Virus record (IMG/VR): IMGVR_UViG_2531839665_000024
Length of the DNA: 48,253 bases
Reading direction: 5' to 3' (one strand)
Source: a virus
Lineage: Duplodnaviria; Heunggongvirae; Uroviricota; Caudoviricetes
Both the position numbers and the translations under genes were made by a program. Shown here piece by piece: positions 1-46,500 of the stretch (position 1 is its first letter; each line of letters opens with the position of its first letter). The notes under the pieces were generated by a model. It was not told the DNA's origin and did no database searches. It worked only from the letters and a program-made list of their open reading frames with translations.

Positions 1-1164
1 TTACGCCTTCTTTATATCCTCCATAATTCCAGAGTGGGACATATTTGGGACATTATCACCAAAAATGTCGTCTATTTTCCTCGCATGCTCTGTCAAATGA
101 TTAGGCGCAAGGTGAGCATACCTACGAACCATTTCTATGGACTCCCATCCGCCCATTTCCTGAAGCACTGATAATGGGACGCCTGACTGAATCAGCCAGC
201 TTGCCCAGGTGTGTCTGAGGTCATGGAAACGGAAATCTTCAATTCCTGCACGACGACAAGCTGATAGCCATGATGTCTTGCTGTCGATGCGCATCTTCCT
301 GACCGCAGGCGTTGATGTTCCATCTGCTCGCTTAGCCGCCTTGGTATGTACAAACACCCATTTGTGATGCTTGCCTATTTGATCACGCAACACTTTACAG
401 GCGGTATCGTTCAGCGCCACACCAATGGCGCGGTTTGATTTGCTCTCTTCTGGATTCACCCAGGCAACTCGTCGCTGCATGTCGATTTGTTGCCATTCCA
501 GATTTATGATGTTCGACTTTCTCAGACCAGTTGCCAGCGCAAACTTGACGACAGATTTCAGTGGTTCGGGGCACTCATCAATAAGGCGTTTTGCTTCCTC
601 CTTTTCCAGCCATCTGACTCGCTTGTTTCTGACCGCTGGTATCTTGATGACAGGCGCTTTTTCCAGCCACTTCCAGTCGCGTTCTGCAGCACGGAGAATG
701 GCCTTTATCATGGCAAGATGCTTTGCCTTTGTCTGAGTTGATACTGGCTTTGGTTCATAAACAGGCGGTTCTTTACCTTTCCTGATGGCGGCCTGAACTT
801 TCTGTTTCCATATTTCTTTCGTCTTTCTGTTATGCATTCTGCTTACAGCAGAGTAAATCTTTGCCTCCGAGATATCTTTAAGCCTTATACCCTCAAAATG
901 TTCAAGCCAGAACTCAATCCGGCTTTTATCTGAATCGAGAGATTTTTTATCAGCTTTTTCCTCAAGCCATCTTAGGCAGGCCTCTTCAAAAGTGACATCA
1001 GGTAAATCCCCTAGCTTTTCTACTCGCCAGAGTTCTGCTTTTCGCTTGTCGTGCAACTCCTGAGCTTGCCGCTTGTCCTTTGTGCCAAGAGATTCCTTAA
1101 TTCGTTTCCCGCCCGGGAGCGAATACGAGGCATACCATATTTCATTTCTGCGGAAGAGTGACAT
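1..1164 (-). CDS. intD: Phage integrase, tyrosine recombinase (DLP12 IntD type)
   Basis: 387-aa ORF; C-terminal HDLRHTWAS...RRYAHL motif region typical of tyrosine recombinases; matches my recollection of DLP12 IntD; sits at prophage end next to xis. Confidence 0.9.
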
Positions 1165-1391
1165 TTTCTTTCCTCTGTTATGCCATCACCCGCGCTCACC
1201 TGGACAGTATGCAGCGGAGACTGAAGCGCCGCAATGCAGGCTTGCCGTGTTGTGAGGTAAGGAGATTTTGGCTTGGTTGGATCTTTACGTGTTGCCTGTA
1301 GGCGGCCTGTTCGTATCCAGTTGGTGGCGGTTGGTCTGGATATCTTAAGAAACTGACAGGCCTCATCGAGTGTGAGGCTGTATGATTCCAT
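1020..1391 (-). CDS. xis: Excisionase-like HTH protein (AlpA/Xis family); start taken at internal ATG with upstream GAGGTAACC; 3' part overlaps int in another frame
   Basis: N-terminal [26 protein letters not shown] helix-turn-helix directly upstream of int; the long overlap with int is unusual, so the true 3' end is uncertain. Confidence 0.45.
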
Positions 1392-1641
1392 GGTTACCTC
1401 TGCTTTTTGAACGCATGTCACGTAACTTCTTAATGTGTTCTGCCGTTTCGATCTCTTCTGCTATCCGATCTGCATCAGCTTTATTCACAGGTTCAAAGTC
1501 ATGATTAAAGCGGAACATGCTGGCGATACATGTTCTGCCTTTTCGGATGTAGTGAACTTTGTTGTGGGTAGAACGCAGGATTTTGCAGGGAGTGCCGTGG
1601 TGGTCGACGTACCAGGTGTTAGGAAAAATGATTCTGAACAT
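1363..1641 (-). CDS. Hypothetical early-left operon protein
   Basis: 92-aa ORF co-oriented with early-left genes; no family recognised. Confidence 0.3.
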   Translation of the reverse strand: MFRIIFPNTWYVDHHGTPCKILRSTHNKVHYIRKGRTCIASMFRFNHDFEPVNKADADRIAEEIETAEHIKKLRDMRSKSRGNHGIIQPHTR

Positions 1642-1688
1642 TTTTACACCTCAGTTGGACGATGTTGAAATTTGCTGCTTTGAGGCCA

Positions 1689-1907
1689 TCACAGTCCCCA
1701 TTGTTTGTTCTTAAGTTCGATCTCCTCCTGGCAACTTGCACAAGTCCGACAACCCTGAACAGCCAGGCGTCTTCGCTCATCTATCGGATCGCCACACTCA
1801 CAACAATGAGTTGCGGATACAGTCTGGTAGTTCAGACGACGCATTTTTATTGCTGTATTGCGCTGTAATTCTTCGATTTCTGATGCCGAATCAATGATGT
1901 CTGCCAT
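1689..1907 (-). CDS. TraR/DksA-family C4 zinc-finger protein
   Basis: 72-aa ORF with CxxC-X17-CxxC (CCECGDPIDERRRLAVQGCRTCASC) typical of phage TraR-like proteins. Confidence 0.6.
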   Translation of the reverse strand: MADIIDSASEIEELQRNTAIKMRRLNYQTVSATHCCECGDPIDERRRLAVQGCRTCASCQEEIELKNKQWGL

Positions 1908-2005
1908 CTTCCATTAATCCCTGAATTGTTGGTTAATACGCTTGAGGATGAATGCGAACAATAAAAAAGGAGCCTGTAGCTCCCTGATGATTTTGCTTTT
2001 CATGT

Positions 2006-2317
2006 TCACCGTTCCTTAAAGACGCCGTTTAACATGCCGATCGCCAGGCTTAAATGAGTCGGTGTGAATCCCATCAGCGTTACCGTTTCGCGGTGCTTCT
2101 TCAGTACGCTACGGCAAATGTCATCGACGTTTTTATCCGGAAACTGCTGTCTGGCTTTTTTGATTTCAGAATTAGCCTGACGGGCAATGCTGCGAAGGGC
2201 GTTTTCCTGCTGAGGTGTCATTGAACAAGTCCCATGTCGGCAAGCATAAGCACACAGAATATGAAGCCCGCTGCCAGAAAAATGCATTCCGTGGTTGTCA
2301 TACCTGGTCTCTCTCAT
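2006..2317 (-). CDS. Hypothetical early-left protein (true start may be an internal Met)
   Basis: 103-aa ORF co-oriented in the operon between exo and xis. Confidence 0.3.
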   Translation of the reverse strand: MRETRYDNHGMHFSGSGLHILCAYACRHGTCSMTPQQENALRSIARQANSEIKKARQQFPDKNVDDICRSVLKKHRETVTLMGFTPTHLSLAIGMLNGVFKER

Positions 2318-2489
2318 CTGCTTCTGCTTTCGCCACCATCATTTCCAGCTTTTGTGAAAGGGATGCGGCTAACGTATGAAATTCTTCGTCTGTTTCTACT
2401 GGTATTGGCACAAACCTGACTCCAATTTGAGCGAGGCTATGTGCCATCTCGATACTCGTTCTTAACTCAACGGGAGATGCTTTGTGCAT
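2298..2489 (-). CDS. Hypothetical small protein
   Basis: 63-aa ORF, co-oriented, acidic. Confidence 0.25.
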   Translation of the reverse strand: MHKASPVELRTSIEMAHSLAQIGVRFVPIPVETDEEFHTLAASLSQKLEMMVAKAEADERDQV

Positions 2490-2650
2490 ACAGCTCCCCG
2501 TTTATTATTTATCTCCTCAGCCAGCCGCTGTGCTTTCAGGGGATTTCGGATAACAGAAAGGCCGGGAAATACCCAGCCTCGCTTCGTAACGGAGTAGACG
2601 AAAGTGATCGTGCCTACGCGGATATTATCGTGAGGATGTTTCATCGCCAT
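2462..2650 (-). CDS. Hypothetical small protein immediately downstream of exo
   Basis: 62-aa ORF whose start overlaps the exo stop region (coupled arrangement). Confidence 0.3.
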
Positions 2651-3321
2651 TGCTCCCCAAATACAAAACCAATTTCAGCCAGTGCCTCGTCCATTTTTTC
2701 GATGAACTCCGGCACCATCTCGTCAAAACTCGCTATATACTTTTCATTCCGCTCAATCACGACATAATGCAGGCCTTCACGCTTCATACGCGGGTCATAG
2801 TTGGCAAAGTACCAGGCATCTTTTCGCGTCACCCACATGCTGTACTGCACCTGGGCCATGTAAGCCGACTTTATGGCCTCGAAACCACCGAGCCGGAATT
2901 TCATGAAATCCCGGGAGGTAAACGGGCATTTCAGCTCAAGGCCATTGCCGTCACTGCATAAACCATCGGGAGAGCAGGCGGTGCGCATACTTTCGTCGCG
3001 ATAGATGATCGGGGATTCAATAACATTTACGCCGGAAGTGAACTCAAACAGGGTTCTGGCGTCGTTCTCGTACTGTTTTCCCCAGGCCAGCGCTTTAGCG
3101 TTAACTTCCGGAGCCACACCGGTGCAAACCTCAGCCAGCAGGGTGTGGAAGTAGGACATTTTCATGTCAGGCCACTTCTTTCCTGATCGGGGCTTTGCTA
3201 TCACGTTGTGAACTTCTGAAGCGGTGATGACGCCGAGCCGTAATTTGTGCCATGCATCATCCCCCTGTTCGACAGCTCTCACGTCGATCCCGGTACGCTG
3301 CAGGATAATGTCCGGTGTCAT
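2641..3321 (-). CDS. exo: Lambda-type 5'-3' exonuclease (Red alpha)
   Basis: 226-aa translation matches my recollection of lambda Exo nearly end to end ([40 protein letters not shown]...). Confidence 0.95.
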
Positions 3322-4103
3322 GCTGCCACCTTCTGCTCAGTGGCTTTCTGTTTCAGGAATCCAAGAGCTTTCACTGCTTCGGCCTGTGTCAGTTCTGACG
3401 ATGCGCGAATGTCGCGGCGAAATATCTGGGAACAGAGCGGCAATAAGTCGTCATCCCATGTTTTATCCAGGGCTATCAGCAGAGTGTTAATCTCCTGCAT
3501 GGTTTCATCGTTAACCGGAGTGATGTCGCGTTCTGGCTGACGTTCTGCAGTGTATGCAGTATTTTCGACAATGCGCTCGGCTTCATCCTTGTCATAGATA
3601 CCAGCAAATCCGAAGGCCAGACGGGCACACTGAATCATGGCTTTATGCCGTAACATCCGTTTGGGATGCGACTGCCACGGCCCCGTGATTTCCCTGCCTT
3701 CGCGAGTTTTGAATGGTTCGCGGCGGCATTCATCCATCCATTCGGTAACGCAGATCGGATGATTACGGTCCTTGCGGTAAATCCGGCATGTACAGGATTC
3801 ATTGTCCTGCTCAAAGTCCATGCCATCAAACTGCTGGTTTTCATTGATGATGCGGGACCAGCCATCAACGCCCACCACCGGAACGATGCCGTTCTGCTTA
3901 TCAGGGAAGGCGTAAATTTCTTTCGTCCACGGATTAAGGCCGTACTGGTTGGCGACGATCAACAATGCGATGAACTGCGCATCGCTGGCATCACCTTTAA
4001 ATGCCGTCTGGCGAAGAGTGGTGATCAGTTCCTGTGGGTCGACAGAATCCATGCCGACACGTTCAGCCAGCTTCCCTGCCAGCGTTGCGAGTGCTGTACT
4101 CAT
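3318..4103 (-). CDS. bet: Lambda-type single-strand annealing protein (Red beta)
   Basis: 261-aa translation matches lambda Bet ([66 protein letters not shown]...); start overlaps exo stop. Confidence 0.95.
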
Positions 4104-4108
4104 CCGTT

Positions 4109-4405
4109 TTATACCTCTGAATCAATATCAACCTGGTGGTGAGCAATGGTTTCAACCATGTACCGGATGTGTTCTGCCATGCGCTCCTGAAACTCAACAT
4201 CGTCATCAAACGCACGGGTAATGGCTTTTTTGCTGGCCCCGTGGCGTTGCAAATGATCGATGCATAGCGATTCAAACAGGTGCTGGGGCAGGCCTTTTTC
4301 CATGTCGTCTGCCAGTTCTGCCTCTTTCTCTTCACGGGCGATCTGCTGGTAGTGACGCGCCCAGCTCTGAGCCTCAAGACGATCCTGAATGTAATAAGCG
4401 TTCAT
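4109..4405 (-). CDS. gam: Gam, RecBCD inhibitor (98-aa form)
   Basis: [21 protein letters not shown]... matches lambda Gam short form. Confidence 0.9.
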
Positions 4406-4480
4406 GGCTGAACTCCTGAAAATGGCTGTGAAAAAATCGCCCGCGGAATGCCAGGCTGATTCGGAAAACAGGAAAGGGGA

Positions 4481-4771
4481 TTAGTGATTCAGACCGTTGC
4501 CGCGTCCGTCGAGAAAAACTTCCACGAGCAAGTCACGGGTATAAGTGCGCTCAATGCCGCGATGCAGATAAAGTCGTCCGCGTAAATTAGCTGATGCAGT
4601 CCAGGTACCATCTTTGCGTTTGACCAGCATTCCTAGCATGACCGCACCGCGATTAACGGTCTGCGTTCCGTAATGTTGATGAACCATAAAAACTCCTGCC
4701 CGTAAGCTGGGCTGCTGAACATATAAAGACTTCTGCGCGTATTCAGGCGGTGGATGGCCGCCGGTTGTCAT
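4481..4771 (-). CDS. Hypothetical protein in the kil/cIII position of the early-left operon
   Basis: 96-aa ORF (possibly 68 aa from internal Met); does not resemble lambda Kil or CIII as far as I can recall. Confidence 0.35.
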   Translation of the reverse strand: MTTGGHPPPEYAQKSLYVQQPSLRAGVFMVHQHYGTQTVNRGAVMLGMLVKRKDGTWTASANLRGRLYLHRGIERTYTRDLLVEVFLDGRGNGLNH

Positions 4772-4964
4772 AACTAAGCCGCCTCGTTGAAGCGACTAAG
4801 GTATGAAATGTTGAGTTGATTTCAGCTGGTCACACCGACGTTCACGCGTCCGTTTCATCCCTCGCACTCCCCGAAGCCTGCTGAAATTCAAGCTGCGGAT
4901 CTAAGCGGTCATCGCAACGGTGAATCAGGTGGTTGCCGTATCGTTGTGTTGTTGCGATATGGTG

Positions 4965-5010
4965 ATAATAGCTATTGCTATTGGTGATATCAATACTTAT
5001 TGCTATTAGT
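4965..5010. promoter_or_regulatory. Putative OL operator region (repeated TTGCTATT motifs, AATAGCTATT palindrome)
   Basis: TTGCTATT at 4975-4982 and 5000-5007 plus palindrome 4967-4976; the same 8-mer recurs twice in the cI-cro intergenic region. Confidence 0.35.
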
Positions 5011-5127
5011 TGATGTGTTTTGATATTAAATGTTTGATAGCAAAAAGAATTAATTTTGTGACTTGCATCGCATAGCGATAACTGAAGTGAGGTCGTGGTG
5101 GTTTTTTGAACGGTGTGTGATGAGGGG

Positions 5128-5161
5128 AGGGCAAAAGAAAACCCGGCACGGTGGCCGGGTT
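5128..5161 (-). terminator. Rho-independent terminator closing the cI-distal operon
   Basis: Minus-strand hairpin CCCGGC-N6-GCCGGG (plus 5142-5159) followed by a U-run (TTTTCTTTTG), immediately after the stop of the 149-aa membrane protein gene. Confidence 0.55.
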
Positions 5162-5609
5162 ATTGTTCTTGATTGATCTTATCGAAGATATCATGACTTA
5201 ATTTTTGCACATTTAGGAAATTTACTATGAAGAAGACAATTGCGTAAATTATTAATGTGAAAAAAAGTATTGAAGGAGAGAATTTTAGTATCAGGGATTT
5301 AAATTCAAAGCTGAACTCATACTCTTTTAAATATTCACTAAGCACAAGGCATAAAGTAGAAAGAGTGAAAAAGCGCAAAAAAGAATTTCGTATAGATACC
5401 AATTCTTTTCTGATAACTTTAACATAATTAATGTTTTTAATGCCAGACATGTTAAAAGTTACAATCAACCCTAACCCGATAGAAAACATTATGCCACAGA
5501 CAGAATACAATGTAGAAATCAAAAACTGATCAGGCCTCCAAGCTAAAAATGATGGAAGCCCGATAGTAATTATCAGAACAATTAGCAAGCTAGCTATTTG
5601 TCGCTTCAT
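5160..5609 (-). CDS. Small integral membrane protein, about four predicted TM helices (RexB-position, RexB-like topology)
   Basis: 149-aa ORF in about 30 percent GC DNA; hydrophobic segments IASLLIVLIITIGLPSFLAW, ISTLYSVCGIMFSIGLGLIVTF, FLRFFTLSTLCLVL, ILFFTLIIYAIVFFIVNFL; start overlaps the upstream gene by 20 nt. Confidence 0.6.
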   Translation of the reverse strand: MKRQIASLLIVLIITIGLPSFLAWRPDQFLISTLYSVCGIMFSIGLGLIVTFNMSGIKNINYVKVIRKELVSIRNSFLRFFTLSTLCLVLSEYLKEYEFSFEFKSLILKFSPSILFFTLIIYAIVFFIVNFLNVQKLSHDIFDKINQEQ

Positions 5610-6615
5610 TTTCTATCTCTTTTAAATATCTGCTCATTTCTTGAAATACCTCTTGTTCTACAAGCTTGCCTGAATCAGTAACCTCAATTGTTACATTTTT
5701 AATCTTAAGAAGATCTTTGCCTTTTATTTCTGAGCGACCATCACTTCGTTTGAATACAATGTTATCAAGATCACTAACAGGTTTTAATGTTGCACTTAAT
5801 AGTTTAGCATAACTATCTTCATCCATGCTCCTTGGTTTACTAAACTTTATCAACAGTTCAGCTGATACTATTTGATTGTCAATTATTTCTTTTAGATTTG
5901 GGAAATTTGGTACAGCTGATTTCAATGCATTTAAAACAGCGTGTGAAAGTTTTATTTTTGTATTTTTTTCTTCAATTTCTGATGGTGGCGATTTCATATC
6001 GGATGACTGAACCAATACTTCTTTTGGAAGAGGAGATGGATCTCTCACAGAAATTGATTTTATATCCTTAAGCTGAACTTTATTACCTTTAACAATCATC
6101 GGTGTGAATTCAATCATTTCATTCCCAACCAGCCAGCGTATATAAGTTTGTAGAGATGATATAGTCCTATTCATCTGCAGATTGGTAACTAAATAATTAT
6201 CACTTATACAGAAGTAGAAATGGTTTTTGCATACGACCTCTGTATCAATGTCAGCATTATGGAGATCACTAATTGTAAATGATTTTTTGTTAAAAAGTTG
6301 ATCGGGAATCTTTTCAACTCCCTCGCTTGGGGCAATTCTAACCATTGTACAAAAAACAGAATTACTGTTGTCTGATGTCTGATAGAACGATATCAAATCT
6401 TGTTCTTGCCTAAGATCGTCAGAGTTTAAAACCATGCAACGTTCTTTTACGGTAGATGAGTCAACTAGCTTTTGTAATAAAAGCTTTTTCGCGGGGCTAG
6501 ATTTTTCTGTTAGATTATTGTTTTCTATCTTAAAAGCTCTTAATTTCACTTGTTTAGGTTTATTATGTTTTTTATTTACAGAGCTGCTATTTTCACTATT
6601 CATAGAATCAACCAT
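5590..6615 (-). CDS. Uncharacterised 341-aa soluble protein (RexA-position); candidate sensor/effector of a phage-exclusion system
   Basis: 1026-nt ORF in AT-rich DNA (a long ORF is statistically unlikely by chance in AT-rich sequence); directly downstream of cI on the same strand; no recognisable family. Confidence 0.6.
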   Translation of the reverse strand: MVDSMNSENSSSVNKKHNKPKQVKLRAFKIENNNLTEKSSPAKKLLLQKLVDSSTVKERCMVLNSDDLRQEQDLISFYQTSDNSNSVFCTMVRIAPSEGVEKIPDQLFNKKSFTISDLHNADIDTEVVCKNHFYFCISDNYLVTNLQMNRTISSLQTYIRWLVGNEMIEFTPMIVKGNKVQLKDIKSISVRDPSPLPKEVLVQSSDMKSPPSEIEEKNTKIKLSHAVLNALKSAVPNFPNLKEIIDNQIVSAELLIKFSKPRSMDEDSYAKLLSATLKPVSDLDNIVFKRSDGRSEIKGKDLLKIKNVTIEVTDSGKLVEQEVFQEMSRYLKEIENEATNS

Positions 6616-6708
6616 TGATTATGTGTAGTTTTATAATGTAGTAAGCATCAAGTATTTTTATAATTTGAGTTTGGTTTATCACACAAACATTTAAACCAAC
6701 TTGCTAAG

Positions 6709-7437
6709 TCATCCATGCTTTCTGTATGTCTGCGGCATGCTCCCAATAACTTTCCCGAAGATAAACACCCGGTTCATCTCGTCTTTCTCGATCGGGTCCC
6801 ACGGTGAGTAGCTCTTGTTATCAGAGATAACCAGCAGCTTATCCTTCATCATTTGCAGGCGCTTTACATGGGCTGTGTCGTCATACAGAAACGCATAGAT
6901 ACCATCACCGTCGAAAGATTTAACCGTGATATCAACGAACAGAAGATCACCTGGTTCGATCGTTCCTGACATGCTGTCACCACGCACGTTAATGATGCGG
7001 ATATTTTCCGCCTTCCTGCCATCGAACATGTGACGAGCATCGTCAAACGAGTACTCAACCGAGCGTAGAACTTCTACAAACTCACGGTTGATTACACCCG
7101 GCCCGGCACTGACTTCTATATCAAGAACGTCAATCTTGAAGTATTTTGAATGGCTGACAGCAGGCTTCCCTGATTGTTGACCGTCATTTCTCATCGGGCC
7201 TATGCCTGATGAGAGCCATTCTGTTCGAACACCCAATGCATTAGCTATTTCAACAATTTTTGTTGAGCCGCGCGCGTTGCCGCTTGTCAGTCTCCAGATT
7301 GTGGGTTGAGCTACGCCAGACGCCTTTGCAAGAGCGCCTTGAGACATTCCAGATTGTTCCATCGCTAGGTTTAAGCGATCAGCAAGAGTTTCTTTTTTCA
7401 TAAGTTTTAATTTATACGCTTGCGTATTGATGGTCAA
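6709..7437 (-). CDS. cI: CI-like prophage repressor with N-terminal HTH and C-terminal S24 (LexA-like) autopeptidase domain
   Basis: HTH (MSQGALAKASGVAQPTIWRL), Ala-Gly cleavage-site candidate (VSAGPG), GDSM serine and downstream lysine of S24 fold; annotated ORF begins at TTG, true start could be the internal ATG 36 nt downstream. Confidence 0.85.
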   Translation of the reverse strand: MTINTQAYKLKLMKKETLADRLNLAMEQSGMSQGALAKASGVAQPTIWRLTSGNARGSTKIVEIANALGVRTEWLSSGIGPMRNDGQQSGKPAVSHSKYFKIDVLDIEVSAGPGVINREFVEVLRSVEYSFDDARHMFDGRKAENIRIINVRGDSMSGTIEPGDLLFVDITVKSFDGDGIYAFLYDDTAHVKRLQMMKDKLLVISDNKSYSPWDPIEKDEMNRVFIFGKVIGSMPQTYRKHG

Positions 7438-7511
7438 AACACGTTTTGCTATTGCTTTGATTAATACGCATTGCTATTATTCATTCATTGCAATACCAAT
7501 AGGAATTGATA
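7438..7511. promoter_or_regulatory. Putative OR operator/divergent promoter region between cI and cro
   Basis: TTGCTATT at 7446-7453 and 7471-7478, palindrome ATTGCAAT at 7487-7494; divergent gene arrangement. Confidence 0.45.
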
Positions 7512-7739
7512 ATGACAAATCAAACCATTCAACTCGCAATCAGTATTACAGGTAGTCAAAAACGACTGGCAGATCTATGCGGTGTAGCCCAACCCACAGT
7601 TTGGCGTTGGCTACACGGTGGCGGAATTGATGCCCGCTATGTAATGAAAATTGTCTCAGCCACTGGTGGAAAGATTAAACCAGCAGATATTCGTCCCGAC
7701 CTCGCACCATTGTTTAACGCGAGTAATTCTGCCGCCTAA
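7512..7739 (+). CDS. cro: Cro-like HTH regulator (YdaS-like)
   Basis: 75-aa ORF from ATG with AGGA SD; HTH QKRLADLCGVAQPTVWRW; divergent from cI. Confidence 0.75.
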   Translation: MTNQTIQLAISITGSQKRLADLCGVAQPTVWRWLHGGGIDARYVMKIVSATGGKIKPADIRPDLAPLFNASNSAA

Positions 7740-7763
7740 ACTGCGGCGTTAACTGATAAGGCA

Positions 7764-8309
7764 ATGACTATGCAACCACTTACATACCAACAGACTAGCG
7801 GATTTAGCCCGACTGCGGTGATAAATCGTTCTCAAATAAAACAAGCTCCAGACCACGAAAAAATCCGTGATGCCGTCCGCGCCTGGTCGGCTGTAGATAA
7901 TCAGGATGTCGTTGCCGCACTCATTGTGAATGAGTATCGGGAGCAGGGCGACGGCACCATCGATTTCCCTGATGATGTCAGCCGTGCACGCCAGAAGCTG
8001 TTCCGCTTCCTCGATAACAAATTCGATTCTGAAAAATACCGAAATAACGTGCGTGAACTGACCCCGGCAATTCTGGCGGTACTACCGCTGGAATATCGCG
8101 GTTACCTGGTTGAGCAGGATAGCTTCATGACTCGGCTGGCTGAAATGGAAAAGGAACTCAGTGAGGCAAAACAGGCTGTCATTCTCAACGCACCACGCCA
8201 CCAGAAACTGAAGGAAATTAGTGAAGGTATTGTGTCGATGTTTCGTGTGGACCCGGATCTGGCTGGTCCATTGATGGCGATGGTTACCACCATGTTGGGG
8301 GCAATATGA
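7764..8309 (+). CDS. YdaT-like protein in the cII position
   Basis: 181-aa ORF directly after cro with SD AAGG; family assignment from memory only. Confidence 0.45.
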   Translation: MTMQPLTYQQTSGFSPTAVINRSQIKQAPDHEKIRDAVRAWSAVDNQDVVAALIVNEYREQGDGTIDFPDDVSRARQKLFRFLDNKFDSEKYRNNVRELTPAILAVLPLEYRGYLVEQDSFMTRLAEMEKELSEAKQAVILNAPRHQKLKEISEGIVSMFRVDPDLAGPLMAMVTTMLGAI

Positions 8310-9325
8310 CAGGCTCAGAAATGGCGAAAGCCGGTCTGCGGGAACAGAGCCGACTTTCAGGTGCAAATCGTAACGCACTCATTGCGGGAGGAATTATGGC
8401 AAACACTGCTGAGATATTCAATTTTCCAGTGCCGGATGTGGCACAAAAGGAGCCGCGCGTGGCAGATCTCGATGATGGTTATACGCGCATTGCAAATGAG
8501 TTGCTGGAAGCTGTGATGCTGGCCGGATTAACACAGCACCAGCTTCTGGTCTTTCTGGCTGTCATGCGCAAAACATATGGCTTTAATAAAAAACTGGATT
8601 GGGTTAGCAACGAGCAACTTTCCGAATTAACCGGGATATTGCCGCACAAGTGTTCTGCTGCAAAAAGTGTTCTGGTAAAGCGTGGGATTTTTATTCAGAG
8701 CGGGCGGAATACCGGCATTAATAATGTGGTCAGTGAATGGTCAACATTACCCGAATCAGGTAAGAAAAATAAAGTTTACCTGAAAGAGGTAAATTTACCT
8801 GAATCAGGTAAAAAAAGTTTACCCAAATCAGGTAAAGGCGTTTACCCGAATCAGGTAAACACAAAAGACAAACTAACAAAAGACAATATAAAACCTTTTT
8901 CGTCCGAGAATTCTGGCGAATCCTCTGACCAACCAGAAAACGATCTTCCTGTGGTGAAACCGGATGCTGCAATTCAGAGCGGCAGCAAGTGGGGGACAGC
9001 AGAAGACCTGACCGCCGCAGAGTGGATGTTTGACATGGTGAAGACCATCGCGCCATCAGCCAGAAAACCGAATTTTGCAGGGTGGGCTAACGATATCCGC
9101 CTGATGCGTGAACGTGACGGACGTAACCACCGCGACATGTGCGTGCTGTTCCGCTGGGCATGCCAGGACAACTTCTGGTCCGGTAACGTGCTAAGTCCGG
9201 CCAAACTCCGCGACAAGTGGACCCAACTCGAAATCAACCGTAACAAGCAACAGGCAGGCGTGACAGCTAGCAAACCAAAACTCGACCTGACAAACACAGA
9301 CTGGATTTACGGGGTGGATCTATGA
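8306..9325 (+). CDS. O: Replication initiator O (lambda-type C-terminal P-interaction domain, distinct N-terminal DNA-binding domain)
   Basis: C-terminal about 110 aa match lambda O (ARKPNFAGWANDIRLMRERDGRNHRDMCVLFRWACQDNFWSGNVLSPAKLRDKW...); iterons embedded in coding sequence. Confidence 0.85.
   Translation: MTGSEMAKAGLREQSRLSGANRNALIAGGIMANTAEIFNFPVPDVAQKEPRVADLDDGYTRIANELLEAVMLAGLTQHQLLVFLAVMRKTYGFNKKLDWVSNEQLSELTGILPHKCSAAKSVLVKRGIFIQSGRNTGINNVVSEWSTLPESGKKNKVYLKEVNLPESGKKSLPKSGKGVYPNQVNTKDKLTKDNIKPFSSENSGESSDQPENDLPVVKPDAAIQSGSKWGTAEDLTAAEWMFDMVKTIAPSARKPNFAGWANDIRLMRERDGRNHRDMCVLFRWACQDNFWSGNVLSPAKLRDKWTQLEINRNKQQAGVTASKPKLDLTNTDWIYGVDL
8746..8859. repeat. Replication origin iterons (five about 19-bp near-palindromic repeats TTTACCYGAATCAGGTAAA) followed by an A/T-rich region to about 8900
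   Basis: Repeats at 8746, 8775 (degenerate), 8794, 8818, 8841 with about 24-bp periodicity inside the O gene, as in lambda ori. Confidence 0.75.
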
Positions 9326-10023
9326 AAAACATCGCCGCACAGATGATTAACTTTGACCGTGAGCAGATGCGTCGGATCGCCAACAACATGCCGGAACAGT
9401 ACGACGAAAAGCCGCAGGTACAGCAGGTAGCGCAGATAATCAACGGTGTATTCAGCCAGTTACTGGCAACTTTCCCGGCGAGCCTGGCTAATCGTGACCA
9501 GAACGAACTGAACGAAATCCGCCGCCAGTGGGTTCTGGCTTTCCGGGAAAACGGGATCACCACGATGGAACAGGTGAGCGCCGGAATGCGTGTTGCCCGT
9601 CGGCAGAATAGACCATTTCTGCCATCACCCGGGCAGTTTGTTGCATGGTGCCGGGAAGAAGCATCCGTTACCGCCGGGCTGCCAAACGTCAGCGAGCTGG
9701 TTGATATGGTTTACGAGTATTGCCGGAAGCGTGGTCTGTATCCGGATGCAGAGTCTTATCCGTGGAAATCAAACGCGCACTACTGGCTGGTTACCAACCT
9801 GTATCAGAACATGCGGGCCAATGCGTTGACTGACGCGGAATTACGGCGCAAGGCTGCCGATGAACTGTCCTGTATGACCGCGCGAATTAACCGTGGTGAG
9901 GCGATACCTGAACCAGTAAAACAACTTCCTGTCATGGGCGGTAGACCTCTAAATCGTGCACAGGCTCTGGCGAAGATCGCAGAAATCAAAGCTAAGTTCG
10001 GACTGAAAGGAGCAAGTGTATGA
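9322..10023 (+). CDS. P: Replication protein P (DnaB helicase loader)
   Basis: 233-aa translation essentially matches lambda P (MKNIAAQMINFDREQMRRIANNMPEQYDEKPQVQQVAQIINGVFSQLL...). Confidence 0.95.
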   Translation: MKNIAAQMINFDREQMRRIANNMPEQYDEKPQVQQVAQIINGVFSQLLATFPASLANRDQNELNEIRRQWVLAFRENGITTMEQVSAGMRVARRQNRPFLPSPGQFVAWCREEASVTAGLPNVSELVDMVYEYCRKRGLYPDAESYPWKSNAHYWLVTNLYQNMRANALTDAELRRKAADELSCMTARINRGEAIPEPVKQLPVMGGRPLNRAQALAKIAEIKAKFGLKGASV

Positions 10024-10322
10024 CGGGCAAAGAGGCAATTATTCATTACCTGGGGACGCATAAGAGCTTCTGTGCACAGGACGTTGCCGCGGTAACAGGC
10101 GCAACCGTAACCAGCATAAATCAGGCTGCGGCTAAAATGGCGCGGGCAGGAATCCTGGTCGTTGATGGTAAGGTCTGGCGAACGGTGTATTACCGGTTCG
10201 CTACCAGAGAAGAACGGGAAGGAAAGGTGAGCACGAATCTGATTTTTAAGGAGTGTCGCCAGAGTGCCGCGATGAAACGGGTACTGAGGGTATATAAAAG
10301 AACATCAATGGGAACACAATGA
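10020..10322 (+). CDS. ren: Ren protein
   Basis: MTGKEAIIHYLGTHKSFCAQDVAAVTGATVTSINQAAAKMARAGILVVDGKVWRTVYYRFATREEREGK... matches lambda Ren. Confidence 0.9.
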   Translation: MTGKEAIIHYLGTHKSFCAQDVAAVTGATVTSINQAAAKMARAGILVVDGKVWRTVYYRFATREEREGKVSTNLIFKECRQSAAMKRVLRVYKRTSMGTQ

Positions 10323-10389
10323 TGAAACAGGTGAGTTGAGTTCAAACTGTAGTACAATTCTCTCCAGTTTGAACAGGAAAGAATATGCT

Positions 10390-10722
10390 ATGAACCCTTA
10401 TATTTATCTTGGTGGTGCAATACTTGCAGAGGTCATTGGTACAACCTTAATGAAGTTTTCAGAAGGTTTTACACGGTTATGGCCATCTGTTGGTACAATT
10501 ATTTGTTATTGTGCATCATTCTGGTTATTAGCTCAGACGCTGGCTTATATTCCTACAGGGATTGCTTATGCTATCTGGTCAGGAGTCGGTATTGTCCTGA
10601 TTAGCTTACTGTCATGGGGATTTTTCGGCCAACGGCTGGACCTGCCAGCCATTATAGGCATGATGTTGATTTGTGCCGGTGTGTTGGTTATTAATTTATT
10701 GTCACGAAGCACACCACATTAA
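10390..10722 (+). CDS. emrE: EmrE small multidrug resistance (SMR) efflux transporter
   Basis: 110-aa four-TM protein MNPYIYLGGAILAEVIGTTLMKFSEGFTRLWPSVG... with conserved Glu14; matches E. coli EmrE, a known DLP12 cargo gene. Confidence 0.9.
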   Translation: MNPYIYLGGAILAEVIGTTLMKFSEGFTRLWPSVGTIICYCASFWLLAQTLAYIPTGIAYAIWSGVGIVLISLLSWGFFGQRLDLPAIIGMMLICAGVLVINLLSRSTPH

Positions 10723-10752
10723 AATAATTTGTTTCTAAACGACTAAAATATG

Positions 10753-10793
10753 GAGGCTCTTATATTTATATGAGCCTCGTTTTATGCTTTTTG
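10753..10793 (+). terminator. Rho-independent terminator downstream of emrE
   Basis: Hairpin GAGGCTC-N12-GAGCCTC followed by a T-rich tract (GTTTTATGCTTTTTG). Confidence 0.6.
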
Positions 10794-10976
10794 TTAATGT
10801 CTTTATTTTTTATGTATTCTTTTGTGCTTTCAAGATTATGGCGTAAGAAAATTGCAATACGATTATTGTTGTATATTCAAGATAATGTGACCTTAATTGT
10901 CTTTTTAAATAAAAATTAAACAAAAATTATATCCCACCACTAAGGTTTATAAAAGCATACGTTAGCAGGTGTCACC

Positions 10977-12503
10977 ATGAAAAAAGCCATAGCATATATG
11001 CGATTTTCATCACCAGGTCAGATGTCTGGCGACTCATTAAACCGACAGAGAAGACTTATTGCTGAATGGTTAAAGGTAAATAGTGATTATTATCTTGATA
11101 CCATAACATATGAAGATTTAGGATTAAGTGCATTCAAAGGAAAGCATGCACAATCAGGAGCTTTTTCGGAATTTTTAGATGCTATAGAGCATGGTTATAT
11201 ATTGCCAGGAACTACATTGTTAGTTGAAAGTCTGGACAGACTTTCAAGAGAAAAAGTCGGTGAAGCGATTGAACGTCTGAAATTGATTTTGAATCACGGT
11301 ATTGATGTTATAACTCTTTGCGACAATACAGTCTATAATATTGACTCTTTGAATGAGCCATATTCATTAATAAAAGCCATACTTATAGCACAAAGGGCAA
11401 ATGAAGAAAGCGAGATAAAGTCAAGTCGGGTTAAATTATCATGGAAGAAAAAACGGCAGGATGCACTGGAATCAGGTACGATTATGACGGCGTCTTGTCC
11501 GAGATGGCTCTCCTTAGATGACAAAAGAACGGCTTTTGTTCCAGACCCCGACAGGGTGAAAACTATTGAGCTAATTTTTAAACTCAGGATGGAAAGGCGC
11601 TCATTGAATGCAATAGCCAAGTATTTAAATGATCATGCTGTAAAGAATTTCTCAGGAAAAGAAAGTGCATGGGGACCTTCTGTAATTGAAAAATTATTAG
11701 CGAATAAAGCTCTGATAGGTATATGCGTACCTTCATATCGTGCAAGAGGGAAAGGGATAAGTGAAATCGCTGGCTATTATCCCAGAGTCATATCAGATGA
11801 TTTGTTTTACGCTGTACAGGAAATTCGGTTGGCACCTTTTGGTATTAGCAATAGTAGCAAGAATCCTATGCTAATAAATCTACTTCGAACAGTTATGAAG
11901 TGTGAGGCTTGTGGTAATACCATGATTGTTCATGCGGTATCTGGAAGTTTGCATGGCTATTATGTTTGTCCGATGAGAAGATTACATCGATGTGACAGGC
12001 CATCAATAAAAAGAGATTTGGTTGATTATAATATCATTAATGAATTGCTTTTTAATTGTAGCAAAATTCAACCAGTTGAAAACAAGAAAGATGCTAATGA
12101 AACTTTAGAGTTAAAAATTATTGAGCTTCAGATGAAAATTAATAATTTAATCGTTGCATTGTCTGTCGCGCCTGAAGTTACCGCTATAGCAGAGAAAATA
12201 AGACTATTAGATAAGGAATTACGAAGGGCTTCGGTATCATTGAAAACTTTGAAGAGTAAAGGTGTAAATTCATTCAGTGATTTTTATGCTATTGACTTAA
12301 CCAGTAAAAATGGACGAGAGTTATGCCGTACACTTGCCTATAAAACATTCGAAAAAATCATAATTAATACGGATAATAAAACCTGTGATATCTATTTTAT
12401 GAATGGCATTGTTTTTAAACACTATCCTTTAATGAAAGTAATATCCGCCCAGCAGGCGATAAGTGCTCTCAAATATATGGTTGATGGTGAGATTTATTTC
12501 TAA
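10977..12503 (+). CDS. ybcK: Large serine recombinase family protein
   Basis: 508-aa ORF with N-terminal resolvase-like catalytic domain (AIAYMRFSSPGQ...SLNRQ) and Cys-rich recombinase/zinc-ribbon region; matches DLP12 YbcK from memory; low-GC gene. Confidence 0.8.
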   Translation: MKKAIAYMRFSSPGQMSGDSLNRQRRLIAEWLKVNSDYYLDTITYEDLGLSAFKGKHAQSGAFSEFLDAIEHGYILPGTTLLVESLDRLSREKVGEAIERLKLILNHGIDVITLCDNTVYNIDSLNEPYSLIKAILIAQRANEESEIKSSRVKLSWKKKRQDALESGTIMTASCPRWLSLDDKRTAFVPDPDRVKTIELIFKLRMERRSLNAIAKYLNDHAVKNFSGKESAWGPSVIEKLLANKALIGICVPSYRARGKGISEIAGYYPRVISDDLFYAVQEIRLAPFGISNSSKNPMLINLLRTVMKCEACGNTMIVHAVSGSLHGYYVCPMRRLHRCDRPSIKRDLVDYNIINELLFNCSKIQPVENKKDANETLELKIIELQMKINNLIVALSVAPEVTAIAEKIRLLDKELRRASVSLKTLKSKGVNSFSDFYAIDLTSKNGRELCRTLAYKTFEKIIINTDNKTCDIYFMNGIVFKHYPLMKVISAQQAISALKYMVDGEIYF

Positions 12504-43591: not shown

Positions 43592-46500
43592 ATGGCAGTA
43601 AAGATTTCAGGTGTACTGAAAGACGGCACAGGAAAACCGGTACAGAACTGCACAATCCAGCTGAAAGCAAAACGTAACAGCACCACGGTGGTGGTGAACA
43701 CGCTGGCCTCAGAAAATCCGGATGAAGCCGGGCGTTACAGCATGGACGTTGAGTACGGGCAGTACAGCGTTATTCTGTTGGTGGAGGGATTCCCGCCGTC
43801 ACATGCCGGGACCATCACCGTGTATGAAGATTCCCGACCCGGTACGCTGAATGATTTTCTCGGTGCCATGACGGAGGATGATGCCCGTCCTGAGGCACTG
43901 CGCCGTTTTGAACTGATGGTGGAAGAGGTGGCGCGTAACGCGTCCGCGGTGGCACAGAACACGGCAGCCGCGAAGAAGTCAGCCAGCGATGCCAGCACAT
44001 CAGCCCGTGAGGCGGCAACCCATGCGACTGATGCTGCAGGCTCAGCACGCGCAGCCAGCACGTCAGCCGGACAGGCCGCGTCGTCGGCTCAGTCAGCATC
44101 TTCCAGCGCAGGAACGGCATCAACAAAGGCCAGTGAAGCATCGAAAAGTGCTGCTGCTGCAGAGTCCTCAAAAAGCGCGGCAGCTACCAGTGCCGGTGCG
44201 GCGAAAACGTCAGAAACGAATGCGGCAGCGTCACAACAATCAGCAGCCACTTCTGCATCCGCCGCGACCACGAAGGCGTCAGAAGCAGCCACCTCAGCCA
44301 GGGATGCGTCGGCTTCAAAAGAGGCAGCGAAATCATCAGAAACGAACGCATCATCAAGCGCCAGTAGTGCCGCTTCCTCGGCAACGGCGGCAGGCAATTC
44401 CGCGAAGGCGGCAAAGACGTCTGAGACAAACGCCAGGTCTTCTGAAACGGCAGCGGGACAGAGCGCCTCGGCTGCGGCAGGCTCAAAAACAGCGGCTGCG
44501 TCGTCTGCCAGTGCCGCGTCAACAAGTGCCGGGCAGGCCTCAGCCAGTGCCACCGCCGCCGGAAAATCGGCAGAAAGCGCCGCATCGTCTGCTTCAACAG
44601 CCACAACGAAGGCTGGCGAAGCCACTGAACAGGCCAGCGCAGCAGCAAGGTCTGCTTCCGCAGCGAAGACATCCGAGACGAACGCGAAAGCGTCGGAAAC
44701 CAGCGCAGAATCCTCAAAAACGGCTGCCGCATCGTCCGCCAGTTCGGCGGCGTCATCGGCATCATCGGCGTCTGCTTCAAAAGATGAGGCGACCAGACAA
44801 GCGTCCGCAGCGAAGGGCAGCGCCACGACGGCATCCACGAAGGCGACAGAGGCAGCTGGCAGTGCGACGGCGGCAGCACAGAGCAAAAGTACGGCGGAAT
44901 CCGCGGCAACGCGCGCCGAGACAGCGGCAAAACGGGCAGAGGATATTGCATCCGCCGTGGCGCTTGAGGATGCAAGTACGACGAAAAAGGGGATAGTACA
45001 GCTCAGCAGTGCGACCAACAGTACGTCTGAAACGCTGGCGGCAACGCCAAAGGCAGTAAAATCAGCCTATGACAATGCAGAGAAACGTCTGCAGAAAGAC
45101 CAGAACGGCGCTGATATACCCGATAAGGGACGCTTCCTGAACAACATTAACGCGGTCAGTAAAACAGACTTTGCTGATAAGCGTGGTATGCGTTATGTGC
45201 GGGTTAACGCTCCTGCAGGTGCAACATCTGGAAAATATTACCCTGTTGTTGTTATGCGTTCTGCTGGCTCAGTAAGCGAACTGGCATCAAGGGTCATTAT
45301 CACCACGGCAACGCGAACCGCAGGCGATCCGATGAATAACTGCGAGTTTAACGGATTTGTTATGCCTGGTGGCTGGACTGACAGGGGGCGTTATGCTTAT
45401 GGAATGTTCTGGCAATATCAAAACAATGAACGAGCCATCCACTCAATAATGATGAGTAATAAGGGCGATGATTTGCGCTCTGTGTTCTATGTTGATGGCG
45501 CTGCTTTCCCTGTTTTTGCGTTTATCGAAGATGGCCTGTCAATATCCGCACCTGGTGCTGATCTCGTTGTTAATGATACGACCTATAAGTTTGGGGCAAC
45601 AAATCCGGCGACTGAATGTATCGCGGCGGACGTTATCCTTGATTTTAAGAGTGGGCGTGGTTTTTATGAGTCTCATTCGTTAATCGTTAACGATAACTTG
45701 TCGTGCAAAAAACTTTTTGCCACAGACGAAATTGTAGCGCGTGGTGGTAATCAGATTCGAATGATAGGTGGGGAGTATGGGGCATTATGGCGTAATGATG
45801 GCGCTAAAACTTACCTGCTGCTTACCAATCAAGGTGATGTTTATGGTGGCTGGAATACATTAAGACCGTTTGCTATTGATAACGCAACCGGCGAACTGGT
45901 TATTGGAACCAAACTGTCCGCAAGTCTGAACGGTAATGCATTAACAGCAACAAAGCTGCAAACGCCAAGACGGGTTTCTGGTGTTGAGTTTGATGGTTCC
46001 AAAGATATTACTTTAACCGCCGCGCATGTGGCTGCTTTTGCCAGAAGGGCAACGGATACATATGCCGATGCGGATGGTGGCGTTCCCTGGAATGCCGAAT
46101 CAGGCGCTTATAATGTCACCCGCTCTGGCGACAGCTATATTCTGGTTAACTTCTATACCGGAGTCGGAAGTTGCCGGACCTTGCAGATGAAGGCGCATTA
46201 CAGAAATGGTGGTCTGTTCTACCGTTCTTCAAGAGACGGTTATGGTTTTGAGGATGACTGGGCAGAAGTTTATACCTCGAAAAATCTTCCACCAGAAAGC
46301 TACCCAGTCGGCGCACCAATCCCGTGGCCATCAGATACCGTTCCGTCTGGTTATGCCCTGATGCAGGGGCAGACTTTTGACAAATCTGCTTACCCGAAAC
46401 TTGCAGCCGCTTATCCGTCAGGCGTGATCCCTGATATGCGTGGCTGGACGATTAAGGGCAAACCTGCCAGTGGTCGGGCCGTATTGTCTCAGGAACAGGA

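Follow-up and report, generated by a model that had tools for sequence, protein, structure and literature searches.

The immunity region and its operator-like sites

The 48,253-nt viral DNA analysed here (IMG/VR record IMGVR_UViG_2531839665_000024, class Caudoviricetes; the whole stretch is called the window below) carries a lambdoid immunity region in which a short motif recurs in two clusters, one on either side of a CI-type repressor gene and a two-gene cassette. Its left arm has the order int, exo, bet, gam, a Kil homologue, the first motif cluster, the two-gene cassette (5160-6615, minus strand) and cI (6709-7401, minus strand), and continues with the second motif cluster, cro (7512-7739), a YdaT-family gene, O, P, ren, emrE and ybcK. 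The immunity region (3.4 kb searched) is 99.9% identical to Escherichia phage PhiR68_2, from E. coli ECOR13; PhiR68.2 is viable, forms plaques and is part of a published panel of lambdoid phages (bioRxiv 10.1101/2025.11.03.685801). A first-pass annotation of the letters had singled out the 8-mer TTGCTATT and proposed that its copies mark the left and right operators (OL and OR) of a single repressor, bracketing cI and the cassette; the bracketing is as described. In our assessment, based on sequence comparison, the copies of TTGCTATT are very probably half-sites of the cognate operators of the prophage cI and Cro. The proposed operator unit is a 16-bp pseudo-palindrome, AATA-SS-NA-TN-SS-TATT, with two copies at OL and three at OR. 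These sites, two further candidates and the module that contains OL are as follows (no strand is assigned; the scores come from the site matrix described below):

4959-5052: immunity-specific OL module of ~94 bp, swapped wholesale in phages of other immunity on a shared backbone (boundaries from alignment and blastn)
4967-4982: OL1, AATAGCTATTGCTATT, with the 8-mer at 4975-4982; matrix score 20.5, reached in 0 of 200 simulations
4992-5007: OL2, AATACTTATTGCTATT, with the 8-mer at 5000-5007; score 20.7; 25 bp from OL1
5036-5051: weak candidate for a third left-hand site, GATAGCAAAAAGAATT, in the conserved block 5033-5058; score only 8.0
7413-7428: OR3, TATACGCTTGCGTATT, the most symmetric site, without the 8-mer, between the hexamers of pRM; score 17.6
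7438-7453: OR2, AACACGTTTTGCTATT, with the 8-mer at 7446-7453; score 16.1; identical in 10 of 11 lineages
7463-7478: OR1, AATACGCATTGCTATT, with the 8-mer at 7471-7478; score 22.0, the best in the window
7492-7507: AATACCAATAGGAATT, candidate for a fourth site at OR, which lies 29 bp beyond OR1 and past the start of pR and overlaps the Shine-Dalgarno sequence of cro; score 16.6

The proposed operator unit and its arrangement

All four copies of the 8-mer were found on the plus strand exactly where the first-pass annotation had placed them, and a search of the whole window added one more (45870-45877). By count the enrichment is only marginal (5 copies against 1.62±1.23 expected, with 1 of 100 shuffles reaching 5). 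This, together with the AT-richness of the regions and the letters that their promoter hexamers share with the motif, would suit an AT-rich 8-mer that has clustered by chance in promoter DNA between genes, itself AT-rich, and that no protein specifically recognizes. The arrangement speaks differently: the copies form two pairs, separated by exactly 25 bp within each pair and by ~2.47 kb between pairs. Since the 8-mer had been chosen after it was seen, we generated 300 first-order Markov simulations and asked how often any 8-mer forms two separate close pairs; this occurred in 1 of the 300, and in none with equal spacing in both pairs. The sole other 8-mer of the window with two separate close pairs, CTGGCGTG (33125/33164 and 43399/43412), has unequal spacings (39 and 13 bp) in a GC-rich context of the late-gene part and is probably coincidental.

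The 8-mer is thus a genuine shared motif, albeit not the functional unit, as it forms only the right half (positions 9-16) of the 16-bp pseudo-palindrome. The start-to-start distance is exactly 25 bp for every neighbouring pair of sites. Perfect matches to AATA-N8-TATT in the 48-kb window occur only at 4967, 4992 and 7463, all within OL or OR, and with at most one mismatch there are 29 matches against 15.0±4.1 expected, a number reached by 0 of 100 shuffles. A site matrix trained solely on sites of Salmonella and Klebsiella phages was then applied to the window; its six best matches all fall in OL or OR and score 16.1-22.0, compared with 12.7±2.1 for the best score per simulated sequence, and nothing outside OL and OR in the window scores 12 or more, including any HK022-like extra operator downstream of cro. 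The fifth copy of TTGCTATT, tried as a site, was rejected as a chance occurrence: its 16-mer scores 11.3, which 71.5% of simulated sequences reach. Over 22 distinct sites from 11 lineages the half-site consensus is A-A-T-A-(C/G)-(C/G/T)-N-A; every position of the outer AATA is retained by 40 to 44 of 44 half-sites, and variability is found among the inner bases.

Individual sites differ in how far they have been held constant. An orthologue of OL1 exists in all 11 lineages compared, with an invariant left half (AATAGC), and the OL pair with its 25-bp spacing is present in every relative. OR1 is conserved, with changes confined to the central positions 6-7, and the left half of OR2 (AACACG) is deviant yet conserved. 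OR3 is identical in 10 of 11 lineages and differs by one base in BTP1. It has a T at position 1 and escaped the first-pass annotation, whose two 8-mer-bearing sites at OR stand, but do not make up the complete set: 7413-7428 has to be added, and possibly 7492-7507 as a fourth. One could argue for a design of two plus two operators, in which only the 8-mer-bearing pairs are bound and 7413-7428 is merely a palindrome within pRM. This site has neither TTGCTATT nor the usual first base, and its ATACG-type halves are unlike the AATAGC halves that dominate the other sites. However, it shares the 16-bp frame, its score of 17.6 is reached by only 1.5% of simulations, it lies 25 bp from OR2 and is conserved as stated, ATACG halves recur on the left of OR1 and OR2, and, lying between the two hexamers of pRM, it is placed as OR3 is in lambda. 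We consider the two-plus-two design very unlikely and retain 7413-7428 as OR3.

Neither of the two further candidates is established as an operator. The score of 7492-7507 is reached by 4.5% of simulations; its position is kept in all lineages, with ATAC and GGAAT invariant, and the conservation of GGAAT may, at least in part, reflect the cro ribosome-binding site. On the left side, the block TTGATAGCAAAAAGAATTAATTTTGT (5033-5058), upstream of pL, is kept in BTP1, ST104 and the Klebsiella phage in the form TTGATAGCAAAA(A/T)GAATT(A/T)ATTTT, despite a background identity of ~76%, and could be a distal OL3, an UP element or a site for a host factor. Another left-hand candidate, 5012-5027, was dropped with a score of 3.2.

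The two palindromes that the first-pass annotation had placed beside the 8-mers, AATAGCTATT (4967-4976) and ATTGCAAT (7487-7494), are present in the window but are not kept in relatives: the first is replaced there by AATAGCATTG or AATAGCAATG, and the second reads ATTGTAAT in Perceval and O157:H7 and is missing from BTP1, ST104 and the Klebsiella phage. Both are incidental, because they are unconserved.

Predicted promoters and the cI transcript

The sites overlap consensus-matching hexamers of pL and of the divergent promoters pRM and pR. The elements assigned here, together with the terminator of the cI operon, are the following:

4965-4970, minus strand: pL -10, TATTAT; the leading TATT doubles as the end of OL1; positions kept in BTP1, ST104, Klebsiella and O157:H7
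4988-4993, minus strand: pL -35, TTGATA; 2-bp overlap with OL2
5140-5161, minus strand: predicted intrinsic terminator closing the operon of cI and the cassette, analogue of lambda t-imm; 8-bp stem with 6 GC pairs, then TTCTTTTGCC
7409-7414, minus strand: pRM -10, TAAATT; invariant hexamer, 7 nt from the cI ATG
7432-7437, minus strand: pRM -35, TTGACC; abuts OR2; invariant as GGTCAA in the cI-cro spacer alignment
7452-7457, plus strand: proposed pR -35, TTGCTT, assigned by eye; 2-bp overlap with OR2; TTG invariant, the next three bases variable
7475-7480, plus strand: proposed pR -10, TATTAT, assigned by eye; the leading TATT doubles as the end of OR1

A promoter consensus scan called pL as TTGATA-17-TATTAT (10 of 12 consensus positions, 4993 to 4965) and pRM as TTGACC-17-TAAATT (9 of 12, 7437 to 7409), while the proposed pR, TTGCTT-17-TATTAT, agrees with the consensus at 8 of 12 positions. 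Its -10 hexamer is TATTAT in nine of ten aligned sequences and TATCAT in Kluyvera intermedia. The geometry of pL and pR is mirrored: in both, the -10 TATTAT starts from operator position 13 (of OL1 or OR1) and the TTG of the -35 from the penultimate base of OL2 or OR2, and the same arrangement is found in BTP1, ST104, Klebsiella and O157:H7. No conserved Shine-Dalgarno sequence precedes cI in the spacer alignment of ten lineages; because, in addition, the pRM -10 ends 7 nt from the cI ATG, the layout implies, by analogy with known switches, a leaderless cI mRNA. Homology of the backbone with other phages stops at the terminator 5140-5161.

Comparative analysis of the proposed operators

The footprint in the cI-cro spacer was derived from an alignment of 10 lineages, and the sites themselves were compared in 11. 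In the spacer the blocks without variation are the three OR sites, both hexamers of pRM and, within pR, the TTG and AT; variation is found between the sites and in the site centres. Downstream of the repressor operon, a pair of perfect AATA-N8-TATT sites with 25-bp spacing occurs in each of BTP1, ST104 and the Klebsiella phage (~76% nucleotide identity), and the inner bases of these OL sites differ from those of the window (e.g. AATAGCATTGAGTATT). In an O157:H7 prophage that shares the same cI and has an unalignable OL, exactly two strong sites are again found 25 bp apart, between kil and a SIR2 cassette. The 8-mer half-site of its OL1 is on the other strand and its OL2 lacks the 8-mer; because of this, neither the orientation nor the exact sequence of the operators can be considered fixed. 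In the O157:H7 SS TX 754-1 prophage, cro (ydaS) is annotated as frameshifted (L011 6343-6565), with cI, all operators and the SIR2 cargo gene intact, and this prophage may be locked in the repressed state.

The converse comparison is provided by PhiR5_1 and PhiR34_1, whose backbone is identical to the window up to 4958 and from ~5053 and which also share the C-terminal half of cI. They have another cI helix-turn-helix (HTH) domain and another Cro, and carry unrelated repeats (of the AACAAC...GTTGTT type) at both OL and OR. Matches to the site matrix are absent from both of them, from HK022 (0 in 20.7 kb) and from a Klebsiella phage with a 63%-identical cI. Further lineages came from a scan of one genome per species, which added prophages of Kluyvera, Citrobacter and Raoultella; in these OR3, OR2 and OR1 lie at -27, -52 and -77 from the cI ATG and the OL pair 1.1-2.2 kb beyond cI. 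In Kluyvera georgiana the N-terminal domain of cI is the same and the C-terminal domain different (56% identity overall), and every site is present; in Klebsiella grimontii, with a PhiR5_1-type HTH, there are no sites. From the contrasts with these two species and with PhiR5_1 and PhiR34_1 it follows that the sites track the DNA-binding domain of cI rather than the backbone, the C-terminal domain or the cargo; in other words, operators and DNA-binding domain co-vary. The 16-bp sites with their 25-bp spacing recur in six genera with the same HTH despite the turnover of OL sequence, and they disappear exactly when the HTH of cI changes. A chance clustering of AT-rich letters is effectively refuted by these comparative data, and we give it next to no credence.

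The module comprising the cI N-terminal domain, OR and cro is found in 723 of 5,426 complete E. coli genomes (13%), O157:H7 included, and this particular version of OL in 260 genomes. Its hosts also include the P22-like Salmonella phages BTP1 and ST104 and prophages of Klebsiella, Kluyvera, Citrobacter and Raoultella.

cI, Cro and the question of who binds

The regulators encoded around OR are:

6709-7401, minus strand: cI repressor, 230 aa; Pfam HTH_3 and Peptidase_S24 (C-terminal S24 self-cleavage domain), N-terminal 434-like HTH domain
7512-7739, plus strand: Cro, YdaS family; Pfam YdaS (E 9.6e-15) and Cro of the Xylella prophage 3bd1 in the PDB (E 1e-3)
7764-8309, plus strand: YdaT-family protein, CII analogue of this type of switch; Pfam YdaT (E 2.8e-30)

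Residues 6-66 of cI align with the whole DNA-binding domain of the 434 repressor, its closest solved relative in the PDB, and cI as a whole is 40% identical to HK022 cI, mainly in the C-terminal domain. The start of cI is annotated inconsistently, at an internal position in PhiR68_2 (window 7347) and at a TTG inside OR in BTP1 (corresponding to window 7437); the discrepant loci are 6709-7437 in the window, L001 6710-7348 and L002 2497-3222. The ATG at 7401 fits the 434 alignment, and annotations of the homologous gene in PhiR70_1, Perceval, Klebsiella phi8.2 and RefSeq E. coli begin there too.

The recognition-helix peptides of cI (GVAQPTIWR) and Cro (GVAQPTVWR) are nearly identical, with 22 of 30 nucleotides the same, as would fit operators shared by both proteins. 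The likeness points to a common origin of the two helices or to gene conversion between them. It also leaves an 18-nt inverted repeat, 89% complementary (7300-7317 and 7581-7598), which arises from the helix codons of cI and cro lying on opposite strands. In PhiR5_1, of the other immunity type, the helices of cI and Cro are alike as well (VSQAAIQK and VSQQAVYK).

This bears on the possibility that the sites are real but serve mainly another regulator than cI, be it Cro (YdaS) alone, YdaT or a host factor. Cro always moves together with the cI N-terminal domain, so that co-variation cannot by itself separate the two, and the contrast between OR3, built only of ATACG-type halves, and the AATAGC half in the lytic-promoter sites hints at two preferences. 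On the other hand, with the same recognition-helix peptide in cI and Cro, shared sites are what one would expect, as in lambda, 434 and CP-933P; the site pairs over pL, distant from cro, suit a prophage repressor that silences both lytic operons; the CP-933P homologue of YdaT works at a separate promoter between ydaS and ydaT (PMC8630535); and a host factor would not be expected to co-vary with a phage HTH. A regulator other than cI as the main user of these sites therefore appears very unlikely, and cI together with Cro remains our preferred assignment.

Comparison with known switches

The region has what is seen at lambdoid OL and OR: a repeated imperfect palindrome in two clusters, promoter overlap, and a CI-type repressor with a divergent Cro. 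Resemblance to lambda itself lies in the divergent pL and pR/pRM, the multiple imperfect palindromes (binding to which is predicted here), the three OR sites, the presumed leaderless cI, and a repressor operon that runs into a RexA-fold gene and a gene for a small putative membrane protein and then a terminator. The distances are close as well, neighbouring sites being 25 bp apart here and 23-24 bp in the annotated lambda record, OL1 and OR1 being 2496 bp apart here and 2407 bp in lambda, and OR3 lying 12 bp from the cI ATG here and 11 bp in lambda. In contrast, the spacing of sites is uniformly 25 bp rather than 20-24 bp, the sites are 16-bp AATA-N8-TATT rather than 17-bp TATCACCGC-type, there are two clear OL sites rather than three, and an N gene and a nut site are not evident downstream of pL. 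The cI HTH, Cro, RexA and RexB have no sequence similarity to their lambda counterparts, the Cro and CII functions being represented here by the YdaS and YdaT families. The claim that the immunity type is not that of lambda holds, as the matrix has no match in the lambda immunity region (maximum 8.6).

The PDB matches of the cI N-terminal domain are led by 434 and do not include lambda cI. The likeness to 434 extends over the DNA-binding domain, including a ...ALGV..(D/E)WL..G pattern, and to the logic of the operator, with four near-invariant outer bases in each half-site and a variable centre. The 434 operators, however, are 14 bp long (ACAA-N6-TTGT) with a different outer tetranucleotide, the recognition helix is QQSIEQ in 434 and QPTIWR here, and the C-terminal domain is HK022-like, not 434-like.

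The C-terminal domain family, responsible for oligomerisation and cleavage, is common to HK022 and the window. HK022 immunity, to which the ST104 annotation alludes (cI and cro 'similar to HK022'), was considered and rejected: the HTH domains can be aligned but differ at most positions, and matching sites are absent from HK022. According to PMC8053113, which cites Carlson & Little 1993, the CI of HK022 occupies neighbouring operators cooperatively and forms a loop between OL and OR. No counterpart was found here of the extra HK022 operator 300 bp downstream of OR, and the pL leader here has no similarity to the HK022 region downstream of pL with Nun and the put RNAs.

The closest match is with ST104 and BTP1. 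The repressors belong to one family (86% amino acid and ~76% nucleotide identity) with an identical recognition helix (GVAQPTIWRL), OR2 is unchanged, the differences in OR1 and OR3 are confined to central bases, and a homologous OL pair has the same 25-bp spacing. By sequence, the window appears to be of the same specificity type as ST104 and BTP1 on a different phage chassis: those phages differ in their P22-like virion and replication modules, in an N-type antiterminator downstream of OL, in cargo (st313-td in BTP1, orf23 in ST104) and in the inner bases of OL. The genome paper on epsilon-34 lists 'ST104' as an unstudied specificity with operators undescribed (PMC2629481). The 86% identity of the cI proteins falls below a rule of thumb of 92% (PMC2629481); cross-immunity with the ST104/BTP1 type is nevertheless predicted.

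In CP-933P of O157:H7 experiments have shown a YdaS-family Cro analogue, a YdaT CII analogue with a CII-like role, a leaderless repressor gene, an analogue of PL/OL, several evenly spaced palindromes over divergent PRM and PR, and cargo downstream of the repressor gene (PMC8630535). Its four OR sites parallel the candidate fourth site of the window. Its repressor, PaaR2, has no similarity to CI-type repressors, its 18-bp palindromes follow a different consensus (GTTTAGTAA), and its cargo is of the toxin-antitoxin kind.

A model of the switch

Taken together, the overlap with pL and pRM/pR and the co-variation with the cI DNA-binding domain across many phages argue that the two clusters are OL and OR of one immunity region, as the first-pass annotation had proposed. 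A dimer of the 434-like HTH domain would read each 16-bp operator. OL1 and OL2 would cover the -10 and -35 hexamers of pL, OR1 the -10 of pR, OR2 the interval between the -35 elements of pR and pRM, and OR3 that between the hexamers of pRM. In a lysogen, cI at OL1/OL2 and OR1/OR2 would turn off pL (kil-gam-bet-exo) and pR (cro-ydaT-O-P), and cI on OR2, abutting the -35 of pRM, would probably activate pRM. The cI mRNA from this promoter, putatively leaderless, would extend across the gene for the RexA-fold protein and that for the putative membrane protein as far as the terminator at 5140-5161. Negative autoregulation by cI would act at OR3, which Cro would also use to turn cI off; induction of the prophage would follow from self-cleavage of the S24 domain, stimulated by RecA. 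That neighbouring sites keep a fixed 25-bp register, and that OR2 retains its weak left half, suggests, by analogy, cooperative pairwise binding, and looping between OL and OR over 2.5 kb is plausible on the HK022 precedent.

Several points weigh against this reading. The order of occupancy, cooperativity, activation of pRM, looping and leaderless translation are transferred purely by analogy, and binding, footprinting, transcript-mapping or immunity data on this repressor type were not found in the searchable literature. With 3 of 6 consensus positions in its -35, TTGCTT, pR is weak and was missed by the promoter scan. The entire cI-cro spacer is 87% conserved, and the contrast of the footprint comes from ~25 variable columns; the sites, moreover, are AT-rich and overlap promoter elements, so that their conservation could in part reflect promoter function rather than repressor contacts. 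Finally, the matrix is partly dependent on the window, as the OR sites of the relatives are nearly identical to it and only the OL sites differ. As to precedent, the exact 16-mers are absent from the searchable literature, a search with the bare 8-mer returned only primer noise, and the BTP1 papers contain no operator description.

A more elaborate scheme can be drawn from the half-sites. AATAGC-type halves always face the lytic promoters, on the right in OR1 and OR2 and on the left in OL1, where the TATTAT of the -10 is made from them, whereas OR3 is always ATACG/ATACG. Such halves might constitute a code, with AATAGC halves facing the lytic promoters, OR3 being of the ATACG/ATACG type, and cI and Cro filling the sites in opposite orders despite their almost identical recognition helices, to which the fourth site would add control after initiation, over the cro ribosome-binding site. 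We regard this scheme as doubtful, with roughly one chance in its favour to several against; if true, 7492-7507 would be a layer of control without a lambda counterpart.

The pL operon, the cassette and the cargo slot

The genes transcribed from pL and downstream of cI add the following features:

4481-4771, minus strand: Kil-like cell-division inhibitor, whose open reading frame (ORF) comes first in the pL operon; matches phrog_294 'Kil protein' (E 1.8e-35) and is annotated as Kil in related phages
5160-5609, minus strand: 149-aa protein in the RexB position; three strongly hydrophobic segments by hydropathy
5590-6615, minus strand: 341-aa protein in the RexA position; predicted RexA/RdgC fold

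No N-like antiterminator gene lies between pL and the kil ORF, and even phages of other immunity type have kept the 185-nt pL leader (4772-4958, minus strand). As the N gene is missing after pL, an antitermination RNA of the put type was considered in this leader and rejected: similarity to the HK022 pL-nun region is absent and the fold does not exceed those of shuffles in stability (z = -0.15). An Rfam search of window positions 1-12000 gave nothing above threshold; the best hit, isrJ, reached 29 bits against a gathering score of 37 and lies over the terminator. On the other side of the switch, ren is directly followed by emrE, a multidrug efflux gene of the SMR type, and by ybcK, which encodes a serine recombinase of 508 aa (10336-12503), as in the DLP12 remnant of K-12, and from this placement the window is an intact relative of DLP12.

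The ORF for the 149-aa protein overlaps the end of the 341-aa gene and is followed by the terminator. The predicted structure of the 341-aa protein has a split globular domain with a dimerisation domain, RdgC-like, as in the RexA fold. Neither cassette protein has a match in Pfam, PADLOC or PHROGs, and BLASTP against the lambda Rex proteins revealed no similarity (E 20 against RexA, E 5.5 against RexB), so that the cassette was identified through fold comparison only, all sequence-based attempts being negative. The slot between the operon terminator and the cI stop is a hotspot of cargo exchange, occupied here by the RexA-fold pair and, in relatives sharing the flanks or the repressor, by SIR2, ASCH with a hypothetical gene, HipA/HipD, GevT/GevA, st313-td or a ParA-like protein (slot coordinates: ~5160 to ~6712 in the window, L011 3826-5427, L012 4043-5459, L008 2301-3874 and L002 1485-2408).

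With a swap hotspot between the motifs, and with the two clusters forming a 50-nt direct repeat of 74% identity, one might take the motifs for recombination or junction sequences through which cargo cassettes are exchanged, rather than operators. The boundaries of the cassette, however, are sharp and lie at ~5160 (just past the terminator) and ~6712 (the cI stop), away from the motifs; the OR cluster is beyond cI, on the side away from the cassette; no recombinase is associated with the cassette; and the sites fall exactly on promoter hexamers. We find a role as exchange junctions scarcely credible, and continue to read both clusters as operators.

Significance

The system is an ordinary lambdoid switch of a common repressor type, with an operator sequence that is described nowhere in the searchable literature, and adds nothing conceptually to the lambda paradigm. 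Its use is practical: the 16-bp site, the 25-bp register and the promoter overlaps would allow a ready prediction of homoimmune prophages, the definition of the operators would give targets for virulent or non-inducible derivatives of PhiR68.2 and of BTP1-type phages, and the repressor and its operators would make a new orthogonal pair for synthetic circuits. In addition, the operators would mark the fixed boundaries of a cargo hotspot that exchanges defence genes, such as the RexA-fold pair, SIR2 and the HipA type.

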